From assembly GCF_053078305.1 (NCBI RefSeq), contig NZ_CP166879.1: a DNA stretch of 64,000 bases, one strand, 5' to 3'. The position numbers were made by a program. How positions within the stretch are numbered: position 1 is the stretch's first letter; the number at the start of each line of letters is the position of its first letter. Of this stretch, positions 40,401 through 43,400 are shown piece by piece.

Positions 40401-43400
40401 CGCGACCGCGCACGGGTTACCGGGCTGTTGCTGGCGATGTTAATGCGCCTGTTACTGCTGGCGTCAATCTCCTGGCTGGTCACCCTGACTCAACCGCTGT
40501 TCAGCTTCCGCTCGTTTACCTTTAGCGCCCGCGACTTAATCATGCTGTTTGGTGGTTTCTTCTTGTTGTTCAAAGCCACGATGGAGCTGAACGAACGGCT
40601 GGAAGGGAAAGACAGCAATAACCCCACGCAACGCAAAGGTGCGAAGTTCTGGGGGGTGGTGACACAAATTGTGGTACTGGACGCCATCTTCTCACTCGAC
40701 TCGGTGATTACAGCCGTCGGGATGGTCGACCATTTACTGGTCATGATGGCCGCCGTGGTTATCGCTATCAGCCTGATGTTGATGGCCAGCAAGCCGTTAA
40801 CGCAATTTGTTAACAGTCACCCGACCATCGTTATTCTCTGCTTAAGCTTCCTGTTGATGATTGGCTTTAGCCTGGTGGCAGAAGGTTTCGGCTTCGTGTA
40901 ACCAGGTGAATCATTTGATACCAACGAGGGTTTTAGTGAAAGGAGGTGAAATCACCTGTAAGATACTGAAATAAAACAGGTGATACCAATGCGAGCGCGG
41001 AAAGTCTATTTGATACCGATTGTGCAATAATTAGTCGTTTATTCTAAAATCGGCAACACTTTTGATACTACGGATTGACGCTTAAAATGGTTTTAAAAAG
41101 GCTTAAAACGCTTTTCTCCAGATTGTCTTTAAAGGAGTGTACCACAGCACAAAATTTGCACCACTCCCTTACGCACTAGCCTTTTTCTGGGTTACATTTA
41201 AATGATTAACCTTAGCTTCACATTCTTCATAAATCTCTCTTGCTTCAGAATCTGACATATCCTTTAACCTTAAAGCAAGCTCTCGGCGAAAACCGCTAAG
41301 TGCATGTAATTCCTGAATATTATCATCCAATAAGATCGTTAGAAAATCAGCCCCCTTTCTGCCAAGCAATCGGGCTAATTCTAGTTGCTCATCGGTGCTG
41401 AGAGAGGACAGAATTGCCGTAATTGTTTGATTTGCATTATCTAAATTACCTGCATCGACAGTTGAACAACATGGAGTGCTTGGGGTATTTTCATCAGAAC
41501 CAAAAGCTAACCAATTTAAACTCACGTGCTCTTTATTTGATATAAGGCAAGCCATTTTAAAAGAGGGTTCTGTGCCTTTGTGTATGTAGTTATTTAAGGT
41601 TGATACAGGAACCCCCCAATCCTTTGCTGCTGCCCTTACACTCCGCGTCCCGATCAGGCTTAGTAAGCGGGCTTTAAAACTTTCTTTTCCTGGTGCATCA
41701 AAAGAAAAATTTCCATTCTCTTCAATCATTTTTTCTTTTCCTCATAACATATTGAAATAAAAAGAGATAACCAAATAAAACCCACTTCAGCCCACGGAGA
41801 CAAAAGAAAAAGCTATTTTTGCTTTACATGGACTACATTTGGATCAATACTTGTATCAAACTTGATAACAAAATTTAGTTATCAAATTTCGTAACTTTTT
41901 AGGATAGATGAATCATGGCGAGAAATGAAGTTAAGCCTGATTGGCATCCTCAAAGAATCTTGGGGGAAGTCAGAGCCAGAGAAGGAAGTATGAGGGCGCT
42001 GGCCCGTAAAGCTGGCGTAGGTCAGAACAACCTGTACAACGCGGTATACCGTCATGTTCCCAAGTATGAGGGGATTATTGCGGAATGCCTAGGTGTGCCA
42101 CCCGAGGAGATTTGGCCCAGCCGCTACATTCGTAAGGTCGCGTAATTATGTTTGCTTCAGTTAAAGAGCTGGTTGGATTACCGGGAATGCCGGGAACGGA
42201 GCAAGGCGTCCGCTATTCAATCAGGAAGTATGCAACCAGCGAAACCAGCAGACGCCGCCAGGAAGGCAGTAAAGGTTTTGAATACAGCATCGACTGTTTA
42301 CCTGAAGTGACGCAGCAGGCATTGCGTGAGCGCTACGCCCTGCAACTGATGACGCAAAAAGTCGATGAATCACCGGCTCCGGTGGTGACAAAGGCCAGAC
42401 GCTCGCCTGCCGTGGTTGATGCGGTGGAGGCATATCGCGGATCACCACAACTGATGGTTGAACGCCTTAATGCCCTGACTGAAAACCAGCGCCAGGTGGC
42501 TGATGCACGAATCGCGATCGTCAGCGAAGTGATGAAAGTCGCGCAACACCCCGGTTTCAGCTGTGCGAAAGCTATCCGGTTTATCGTTGACAACCTGGCA
42601 CGTTCGCAACTGGACGAGCGCATTGTGGCAATGGTTGAGACGGCGAACGCCAAAAAGGGAAACAGCCGTGCGTTGAGTGAAATAACGCTGAAACGCTGGA
42701 TTGCGGCCTTTAACAAGGCGCAGAACGCCGCTGAACGCCTGCTTTTACTGGCACCGGGTAAGCGCCAGGAAATAAAAGCCGAAGATATTAACTGGCTGCC
42801 CGAATTTCTGGCGCAGTATCGCCAGTCAAACGGCCGACCAATGACCGAGGCTTACGAGGATTTTGTCGCTGAATGGCAGCACCGGCACGCTGATGAGCCT
42901 TATATGCTCGATATCATGCCGTCTTATGACACCATTCGCCGCGCAATGAAGAAACTGCCGGAAGTGGTGAAACAAAAAGGCCGGGTGACCGGCAGTGAAT
43001 ACCGCCAGCTTGAGGGATTCACGCGCCGCGACTGGTCCAGAATGCCGGTGAATTATGTCTGGATTGGTGACGGTCACGGCATGAAGCTGAAATGCGCACA
43101 CCCGGTTCACGGTCGGCCATTTGCACCGGAAGTGACCTTTGTTATCGACGGTGGCACGCGCTTTGTGGTGGGCTGGAGCCTTGACCTGGCTGAAAATGTT
43201 TTCGCCGTAGCCGGTGCCATACAGCACGGCATTCGCCATCACGGCAAACCGTTTCTGTATTACTCGGATAACGGCTCCGGGGAAACCGCCGACATCCTGG
43301 ATAAGGAGGTTGTGGGGATACTGCCGCGACTGGGGATTAATCACCCGACCGGGATTGCCGGTAATCCGCAGGGACGAGGCATTATCGAACGGCTTAACCG

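Follow-up and report, generated by a model that had tools for sequence, protein, structure and literature searches.

A 32-bp palindrome at 41858..41889, between the divergent repressor and ner genes of a Mu-like prophage, is probably the operator of the Cro-like regulator Ner. It lies within the 64,000-nucleotide stretch of DNA analysed here (the window), to which all coordinates refer. The sequence comparisons establish the palindrome itself, show that it is non-random and conserved, place it relative to promoter-like hexamers and link it to ner. The features of the region are listed below in order.

40898..41085, plus strand: left end (attL), five inward transposase-type repeats with GATAC core
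40912, 40957, 40977, 41007 and 41059: left-end repeats, 14-mers, end-matrix scores 11.6-19.8
41169..41729, minus strand: immunity repressor, 186 aa, CI/XRE HTH type (Pfam Phage_CI_repr 7.5e-6, HTH_3)
41699-41709 and 41801-41811 (region 41699..41811), no strand: A-rich repeats CAAAAGAAAAA
41730-41739, no strand: inverted copy of the A-rich repeat, TTTTTCTTTT
41823..41851, plus strand: predicted early promoter Pe, TTTACA-17-AATACT, expected start near 41858
41854..41867, no strand: first palindrome of the earlier note, TATCAA-ac-TTGATA (TATCAAacTTGATA), whose right arm doubles as left arm of the longer, 32-bp palindrome
41858..41889, no strand: 32-bp palindrome, putative Ner operator, AAACTTGATAACAAAA/TTTAGTTATCAAATTT
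41862-41869 and 41878-41885: arms of the palindrome, TTGATAAC and GTTATCAA, with an 8-bp spacer between them
41877..41896, no strand: second palindrome of the earlier note, AGTTA-N10-TAACT, overlapping the longer palindrome in its right arm, and also the conserved leader
41890..41914, plus strand: conserved leader with the ner ribosome-binding site, AGGA at 41902-41905
41915..42145, plus strand: ner, 76-aa Ner/Cro-like regulator (Pfam HTH_35 1e-21)
42148..44235, plus strand: Mu-type transposase, 695 aa (Pfam HTH_Tnp_Mu_1 8.2e-8, Mu-transpos_C)
42148-42279, plus strand: exchangeable I-alpha winged-helix segment, transposase codons 1-44

The prophage sits in E. coli yegH, and its left end is at 40898. 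The match to host yegH runs to 40897, the prophage match begins at that junction, and in other genomes the same left-end sequence adjoins different host genes. Five GATAC sites are present at the left end (40912-41072), and four were read at the right end of the E. coli O157:H7 Z1825 prophage, which is of the same immunity type. All nine repeats are oriented inward, with the consensus ATTTGATACC(G/A)A, which contains TGATA, and the core TTTGATAC(C/T); GATAC is found in every one of them. As with the MuA end sites (L1-L3, R1-R3), several same-oriented repeats lie less than about 170 bp from each terminus, the first of them about 15-20 bp from it, but the end core ATTTGATACC bears no relation to the Mu consensus given in the D108 record. 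Other strong matches to the end matrix in the window, at 8067/8167 (a pair within a host ORF), 61381, 35247 and 32660, were treated as chance.

The repressor-ner spacer, 833-1017 bp from the left end, is the regulatory spacer of a Mu-like early region, in general agreement with the earlier note. The early region encodes a Ner homologue, a transposase with an I-alpha-like N-terminus and a MuB homologue. The Ner of the window is about 40-45% identical to Mu Ner and matches Mu Ner (1NEQ, 3.7e-13) and EnrR (7F9H, 2.9e-11) in the PDB. Residues 2-62 of the transposase match MuA I-alpha (1TNS, 6.9e-6; 1G4D, 0.017). The repressor has no match to Mu repressor c in the PDB, and the Mu winged-helix type is excluded.

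The palindrome is complementary at 14 of 16 positions, with no spacer at this level, and contains the perfect 8-bp arms TTGATAAC-N8-GTTATCAA at 41862-41885, flanked by AAAY/ATTT. It is non-random (P=0.0004, shuffles); there are two centres at this level in 64 kb, and the palindrome has a single match in the window even when 3 mismatches are allowed. The earlier note had placed two smaller palindromes between the repressor (minus strand) and ner (plus strand). Both are present, at 41854-41867 and 41877-41896, but singly they are at chance level, 64% of shuffles having perfect arms of 6 bp or longer and 97% having arms of 5 bp or longer. In the first, the left arm is not kept in phages with the same ner (TACTAA in L004/L005, TATTAA in L006). 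Both are fragments of the one conserved 32-bp palindrome.

Among relatives, the palindrome is inherited with ner rather than with the repressor or the ends, and, to judge by the distant loci L037, L040 and L043, probably rather than with the transposase N-terminal helix as well. Its arms are unchanged in all 12 loci that carry this Ner and include upstream DNA, with variation in the 8-bp spacer between them (AAAATTTA, TAAGTTTA, TAACTTTG), and it is found in none of the 64 other loci. It persists alongside three repressor alleles that are 42-54% identical, and it is replaced upon a change of Ner even where the repressor type, the transposase N-terminal helix or the end repeats are unchanged. 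At the same place, loci with type 3 Ner carry CGATAA-N10-TTATCG, of the same GATAA-N10-TTATC geometry, loci with type 2 Ner carry ATATCCG twice, and L037, L040 and L043 carry TTATCCG..TTATCCGCGCAGATAAC. Locus L037 has the repressor type and Pe region of L006 (repressor HTH GLSFSTLNNYL in both, 65% identity overall), and its transposase N-terminus is 73% identical to that of the window, with the same GVRYSIRK helix; its Ner is 55% identical and its element is different. L037 and L043 have Ner and element in common and differ in their end repeats (ATTTGATACT vs ATTCAAGATA(A/G)(C/G)).

The breakpoints around the ner block are sharp. Homology breaks on the left at 41858 in L005-type phages (or further left elsewhere), and on the right at query position 480, window 42279, in most of 228 E. 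coli genomes. The transposase was found in these 228 of 5426 complete E. coli genomes, and 21 of the 228 carry this ner/I-alpha block. The DNA that varies with the repressor is 41730-41857. No E. coli recombinants separating ner from the N-terminal 44 codons of the transposase were found, and since the two are never separated within E. coli, only the distant L037, L040 and L043 appear to tell Ner from I-alpha. A search of viral contigs with Ner for intermediate variants returned only 100%-identical copies or proteins of 41-45% identity.

The predicted Pe is a consensus match (9/12), and matches of this quality are as frequent in shuffles of the region as in the region itself. Promoter-like hexamers are positionally conserved in diverged spacers, as TTGAAA-17-AATAAT in L004/L005 and TTTACA-17-AATACT in L006/L007, and the annotated Pe of Mu has the same -35 as the window, TTTACA. 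The palindrome begins about 6 nt past the predicted -10 (41846-51), spans about +1 to +32 and ends 25 nt before the ner ATG. In the leader, a GTAACTTTTTAG(G/A)ATAGA-like word is present in types 1 and 2. Inspection by eye also turned up no acceptable -10 for a rightward promoter with TTGATA (41862) as its -35, or for leftward promoters within the palindrome.

The traits of a Ner operator found here are a Ner-family gene immediately downstream (HTH_35 and 1NEQ matches above), an inverted repeat between the predicted early promoter start and the ner ribosome-binding site, and an element that is kept with Ner and changed with Ner (12/12 vs 0/64 loci). We infer Ner binding and its regulatory outcome. 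Ner made from the early transcript would bind the palindrome, probably as dimers on the two arms, and once bound would throttle early transcription (ner, transposase, MuB); it would possibly also lower leftward transcription of the repressor. In Mu and D108, Ner represses both early transcription and leftward repressor transcription.

D108 carries a perfect 11-N8-11 palindrome, CCGTGAGCTAC-N8-GTAGCTCACGG, ending 24 nt before the ner ATG, which we take to be the D108 Ner footprint site. In Mu, positions 1023-1064 form an inverted repeat of 18 nt around a 6-nt spacer, flanked by features annotated 'part of Ner binding region/site' (AF083977). These statements on the Mu and D108 sites draw on the GenBank annotation of Mu and on the sequences themselves. 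The palindrome of the window resembles the D108 site in its 8-bp spacer and in its distance to the ner ATG (24-25 nt), and in both phages, as here, it is the stretch from the early promoter to the ner ribosome-binding site that holds the inverted repeat. It differs from both in its unrelated arm sequence and in a partner repressor of CI type rather than Mu type. EnrR, a Ner-family protein, binds an AT-rich palindrome as a dimer in the crystal structure (PMC9023278). It is homologous to the Ner of the window (7F9H/7F9I), but its palindrome is a compact one of 15 bp, whereas the arms here are 16 bp apart centre to centre. As this separation amounts to 1.5 helical turns, one compact dimer would be unable to contact the two arms from one face.

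Other readings of the palindrome were weighed against a Ner operator. The earlier note had proposed an operator that doubles as a transposition enhancer bound by the transposase N-terminus, on the Mu pattern. This proposal is not supported, as the palindrome follows ner. Homology between the repressor and the transposase N-terminus, which that note had offered as a check, was not found by BLASTP (E=1.9), and the repressor matches Pfam Phage_CI_repr and not HTH_Tnp_Mu_1; in a sister phage with a Mu-type repressor (L031), used as a positive control, the same comparison gave E=8e-14 and HTH_Tnp_Mu_1 was matched. Recognition shared through homologous domains cannot apply where the repressor is not homologous to the transposase N-terminus. 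In Mu, subdomain I-alpha recognises the enhancer, and I-beta/I-gamma recognise the ends (PMC3362531). With enhancer and ends recognised by separate subdomains, likeness to the ends does not belong to the Mu system, contrary to the reading in the note.

It is unlikely, though conceivable, that the palindrome is, or overlaps, an enhancer read by the I-alpha winged helix with no link to the end repeats. The transposase retains an I-alpha-like domain (1TNS match), and ner, the ner-proximal spacer and the first 44 transposase codons form a single exchange block, bounded by 41858 and 42279, which only 21 of the 228 genomes with this transposase carry. The joint exchange favours some transposase target near ner. 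The palindrome lies 961-992 bp from the left end, about the position of the Mu enhancer. The Mu operator/IAS (O1-O2) likewise separates divergently transcribed repressor and ner genes at a distance of about 1 kb from the left end, with a transposase whose I-alpha-type N-terminal winged helix is exchanged with the immunity region, as happened between Mu and D108. Unlike in Mu, the repressor of the window is not homologous to the transposase N-terminus and the palindromes follow Ner. Moreover, the Mu enhancer is O1-O2, on the repressor side of Pe, and not the Ner site, the Mu annotation placing the Ner region downstream of Pe. Site and I-alpha helix are exchanged together in E. coli, but L037, L040 and L043 keep a very similar helix (QGVRY[ST]I[RK]K; QGVRYSIRK in L037) without the palindrome and with a different element in its place. 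The linkage itself may just reflect the 231-bp distance and an absence of homology for recombination. A search for 9-mers restricted to phages with the same I-alpha helix returned only the A-rich AAAAGAAAA and coding-sequence words, so no I-alpha site can be named.

A CI-type immunity repressor is quite unlikely to be the protein that reads the palindrome. The palindrome adjoins the early promoter, and all CI-type repressors of the group have a similar recognition helix, (S/N)TLN(N/S)Y, so that different repressor alleles might read one site. It lies, however, downstream of the -10 and not over the -35/-10; L006 and L037 have the same repressor HTH and Pe region, and only L006 has the palindrome; and the DNA that is repressor-specific is elsewhere, at 41730-41857. 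The co-variation with repressor allele and the overlap with -35/-10 that mark a CI/lambda-type operator were not found for the palindrome, which is one and the same with three alleles. The A-rich repeats are candidate repressor sites, or possibly I-alpha sites; the 9-mer AAAAGAAAA is common to the spacers of the window and of L037, L040 and L043 and is absent from types 2-4.

As a long shot, the Mu logic may survive here with unrelated proteins, an I-alpha enhancer in the c-ner spacer being competed for by the CI-type repressor or by Ner. The enhancer might then correspond to the Ner palindrome, whose TTGATA(A/C)C words are end-like, or to the A-rich CAAAAGAAAAA repeats next to Pe. If true, this would be a convergent re-creation of transposition immunity, and it would explain the constant exchange of the first 44 transposase codons with the ner module.

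The core of the two small palindromes had been said to resemble the end repeats. TGATA does occur in both ends and spacer, and the palindrome has TTGATA in common with the end-repeat core; the conserved arms, though, read GATAA where the end sites read GATAC (9/9), and the matrix scores of the spacer sites (6.6-8.4; conserved arms 7.4-8.4) are far lower than those of true end sites (11.6-19.8). TGATA is enriched in the spacer, whose 185 bp hold three copies of TGATA/TATCA (P=0.013, dinucleotide shuffles), and 2% of all 185-bp segments of the 64 kb equal this count. It is hardly probable that the end-binding domains of the transposase bind the TTGATAAC arms and the nearby TTTGATAC as weak, internal sites of end type. 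TTGATA/TATCAA is found 3 times in the spacer (P=0.002), the matrix matches there rank 45, 65 and 103 of 128,000 positions, and the sole exact TTTGATAC, at 41853-41860 on the minus strand and with GATAC, compares with an expectation of about 0.017, calculated from the six copies that the window has outside the end. Two of the three matches are, however, one sequence counted twice owing to the symmetry of the palindrome, and sister type-1 phages, whose ner is the same, lack the exact 8-mer. Relatives of types 2 and 3a share the ends and the end-binding domain but have another ner module, and their spacer contains no TGATA motif or matrix match. L037 and L043 have the ner-proximal element in common and different end cores, and spacer sites thus did not co-vary with the end core across these lineages. 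The TGATA likeness looks coincidental, a chance resemblance of two AT-rich GATA-core sites read by different proteins, and the palindrome would therefore be an ordinary regulatory site.

Conserved arms, a variable loop and a predicted 8-bp stem would also suit an RNA hairpin in the early transcript's 5' leader. This reading has next to no probability and was rejected on fold statistics (-8.4 kcal/mol, z=-0.92, with 27/200 shuffles folding at least as well), and other Ner types have direct repeats there and not hairpins.

IHF sites (WATCAANNNNTTR) were also sought near the TATCAA words; by eye every candidate has at least 2 mismatches in the TTR part, and this reading was dropped for that reason.

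As a Ner operator, the palindrome is a routine gain in annotation, placing a predicted early promoter and a probable Ner operator in a prophage family that about 4% of complete E. coli genomes (228/5426) carry, O157 and other Shiga-toxin strains among them. Nearly identical phages of this family carry at least 4 exchangeable modules of ner and transposase N-terminus, and both CI-type and true Mu-type repressors are present among them. This diversity of modules is a natural set of chimeras for locating the enhancer in transposable phages, and the same chimeras let one ask whether repressor-transposase competition needs homologous DNA-binding domains.

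The window DNA is E. coli chromosome, and for its TerC-family ORF at 40209-40901 a yegH match exists in 5415 of the 5426 complete genomes. In the comparison with these 5426 E. coli genomes the yegH match stops at 40897, and from ~40898 onwards the DNA matches Mu-like prophages located at many different chromosomal sites. The left end of the prophage was therefore placed at 40898 (TGTAACCAGG...). yegH is disrupted by this Mu-like prophage at 40897/40898; no insertion at that position was found in the complete E. coli genomes of the collection, which fits near-random Mu-type integration. 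The early genes are arranged as follows.

41169-41729, minus strand: repressor (Pfam Phage_CI_repr)
41915-42145: ner (Pfam HTH_35)
42148-44235: transposase (Pfam HTH_Tnp_Mu_1 and Mu-transpos_C)
44307-45239: MuB (Pfam Phage-MuB_C)

The right end lies outside the window and was taken from an E. coli O157:H7 Z1825 prophage (locus L003) whose immunity type matches. Its right terminus (L003 40860-40880 and 315-325) reads ...CGCGCTAT(A), not ...CA, and its target duplication is 4 bp (AGCT) or 5 bp (AAGCT), depending on the reading; a 4-bp duplication is annotated in record LC727881. In its head-gene region (L003 18567-19843), the Z1825 copy has an IS3-family insertion as well as an annotated 'tRNA-OTHER' feature.

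Both palindromes described in the earlier note between repressor and ner are present in the sequence. Such small arms are expected from shuffling (perfect arms of 6 bp occurred in 64% of shuffles, of 5 bp in 97%), and the meaningful unit is a larger one, a 32-bp palindrome at 41858-41889 with 14 of 16 positions complementary and perfect arms TTGATAAC-N8-GTTATCAA at 41862-41885. This palindrome is non-random (P=0.0004). Just two centres in 64 kb reach that level, the sole other 16+16 palindrome with 14/16 being centred at 3347, and no second match to the 32-bp sequence was found in the 64-kb window even with three mismatches.

The transposase family occurs in 228 of the 5426 complete E. coli genomes and the ner region of the window in only 21; in most other genomes of the 228, the match starts at 42279, transposase codon 44. 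The loci compared (L-numbers), sixty from viral contigs and several from genomes, were sorted into exchangeable blocks, in which ner is joined to the spacer DNA next to it and to transposase codons 1-44. At the position of the palindrome, each of the other Ner types has a repeat of its own.

Type 1 (window): Ner start MARNEV, transposase helix QGVRYSIRK
Type 2: Ner start MSRREV, transposase helix KGIRQALQR; repeat, ATATCCG twice
Type 3: Ner start MRVSRQ; repeat, CGATAA-N10-TTATCG within a 44-bp palindrome, with the GATAA-N10-TTATC geometry of type 1
Type 4: Mu-type repressor, transposase helix AGLHKKAKR
L046: repeat, CGGATATCCG twice
L037/L040/L043: repeat, TTATCCG..TTATCCGCGCAGATAAC

TTGATAAC-N8-GTTATCAA was present in all 12 loci having type-1 Ner and upstream DNA and in none of 64 other loci. 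The arms are invariant among the type-1 loci, while three variants of the 8-bp spacer occur; two loci have a C-to-T change that lengthens the perfect arms to 12 bp. The transposase N-termini of L037, L040 and L043 are 64-73% identical to that of the window, and their recognition helices are also very close to it (the same in L037). Their Ner proteins differ in the recognition helix (QDSLKNALYRK against QNNLYNAVYRH), and the element, the repeat just upstream of ner, resembles that of type 2. L037 and L006 are alike in repressor HTH and early promoter (Pe) region but differ in Ner and element. L037 and L043 share Ner and element, although their end repeats differ (ATTTGATACT versus ATTCAAGATA(A/G)(C/G)). 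Thus, the element tracks Ner, and not the repressor or the ends, nor, it appears, the transposase helix. The transposases of L031-L035, L050, L052 (IMG/VR), L002, L024 and L026 are 92-98% identical (72-75% for L050/L052); in these phages ner and transposase codons 1-44 come as four or more different blocks, and the repressors are either CI/XRE-type or true Mu-type. The Mu-type spacers hold about five TTGATATT(A/T)AC repeats. For specialists, the points of interest are the modular exchange of ner with the N-terminal transposase subdomain and the presence of both CI-type and Mu-type repressors within a single phage family.

The earlier view of the spacer as the early regulatory region was borne out. 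A promoter-like TTTACA-17-AATACT is located at 41823-41851, and in diverged spacers this position is occupied by TTGAAA-17-AATAAT or TTTACA-17-AATACT; the annotated Pe of Mu likewise has TTTACA. The palindrome would span ~+1 to +32 of the predicted Pe, and it ends 25 nt before the ner ATG. D108 has a perfect 11-N8-11 palindrome (CCGTGAGCTAC/GTAGCTCACGG) ending 24 nt before ner, and in Mu an inverted repeat of 18 nt, with 6 nt between its arms, occupies 1023-1064, flanked by two GenBank features called part of the Ner binding region. We take both to be the footprinted Ner sites. The title of a cited work mentions D108 Ner with a 61-bp operator. EnrR, a member of the Ner family, binds as a dimer to an AT-rich palindrome (PMC9023278), and Ner has a Cro-like role in Mu and D108 (PMC10434027). 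In the proposed mechanism, Ner made from the early transcript would bind the palindrome immediately after the start of Pe and limit further early transcription, and possibly also leftward transcription toward the repressor gene.

In Mu, the MuA subdomain I-alpha reads the enhancer, while I-beta and I-gamma read the ends (PMC3362531). The window transposase resembles MuA I-alpha (1TNS, 6.9e-6) and also Mu repressor c (1G4D, 0.017) over residues 2-62. Nevertheless, the palindrome is unlikely to be an enhancer bound by I-alpha, given the change of element beside a near-constant helix in L037/L040/L043. The repressor of the window showed no similarity to the transposase (E=1.9), its HTH is CI/XRE-type, and no relative was found among solved structures. 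The comparison can succeed in this family: L031, with a transposase 93% identical in the best tblastn segment, has a repressor with a match to HTH_Tnp_Mu_1, and alignment of this repressor with the N-terminus of the L031 transposase gives 8e-14, both proteins having LPSSLAGLHK(R/K)AK. The phage of the window therefore lacks the repressor-transposase homology of Mu, and the Mu-style relationship proposed earlier is wrong or at least unsupported.

A repressor operator is slightly less probable still. Type 1 includes three repressor alleles, 42-54% identical, and in the L004/L005 allele homology to the window sets in at 41858, precisely where the palindrome begins. The stretch that is specific to the allele, 41730-41857, includes the Pe spacer and is the probable location of the sites bound by the repressor itself. 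Candidate sites are the A-rich repeats CAAAAGAAAAA, with two direct copies (41699-41709, 41801-41811) and one inverted copy (41730-41739), in the vicinity of the repressor start and before the Pe -35. Their 9-mer also occurs in the L037/L040/L043 spacers and is absent from types 2-4; comparable CAAAAAGC/CTTTTT repeats are present around Pe of Mu.

The end repeats were confirmed. The left end holds five sites and the right end four; all nine are directed inward and include GATAC, with the consensus ATTTGATACC(G/A)A. TGATA/TATCA does recur in the 185-bp spacer (three copies; P=0.013 by dinucleotide shuffling, and 2% of same-size windows do likewise), but the likeness is shallow and not conserved. 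The strongest-enriched spacer word, GATAAC/GTTATC (three copies, reached in 0 of 5000 shuffles), differs from the end core GATAC. With a weight matrix from the nine end sites, these scored 11.6-19.8 against 6.6-8.4 for three spacer hits (ranks 45, 65 and 103 among 128,000 positions). Two hits are one sequence doubled by the palindrome, and have A at a position that is C in all end sites. The third (41853-41860, minus strand) is an exact TTTGATAC, in place of which sister phages with identical ner have CTACTAAA, GTATTAAA or ATATCAAA. Types 2 and 3a, with ends and end-binding domain as in the window, have no end-like match in the spacer. Weak end-type sites are thus very improbable. As different subdomains read the Mu enhancer and ends, an operator-end likeness is not something that the Mu arrangement predicts, and the link to the end repeats proposed earlier is mistaken or, at the least, unsupported. 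An RNA hairpin is the least credible reading, the fold (-8.4 kcal/mol) having z=-0.92.

In distant relatives (transposase ~75% identical), L043 (1804-1938) and L046 (795-929), the left-end core is ATTCAAGATA(A/G)(C/G) with site spacings of 71 and 52 bp; the 52-bp interval also separates the last two left-end sites of the window. These divergent cores offer a way to study co-variation with the end-binding domains. The transposase-MuB spacer holds GGTATCAAATG at 44283-44293, the reverse complement of CATTTGATACC and an exact 11-mer of end sites L1 and R2; it occurs there in about one-third of relatives, the rest having unrelated sequence. A hairpin, AAATAACC...GGTTATTT (44243-44272), directly follows the transposase stop codon and is kept in close relatives. 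At this position a hairpin of different sequence occurs in L042 and L045, pointing to a structural element that perhaps gives partial termination between A and B. The ner gene carries the exact 11-mer AAGTATGAGGG twice (41986-41996 and 42062-42072) in two different reading frames, so protein repetition does not explain the two copies.
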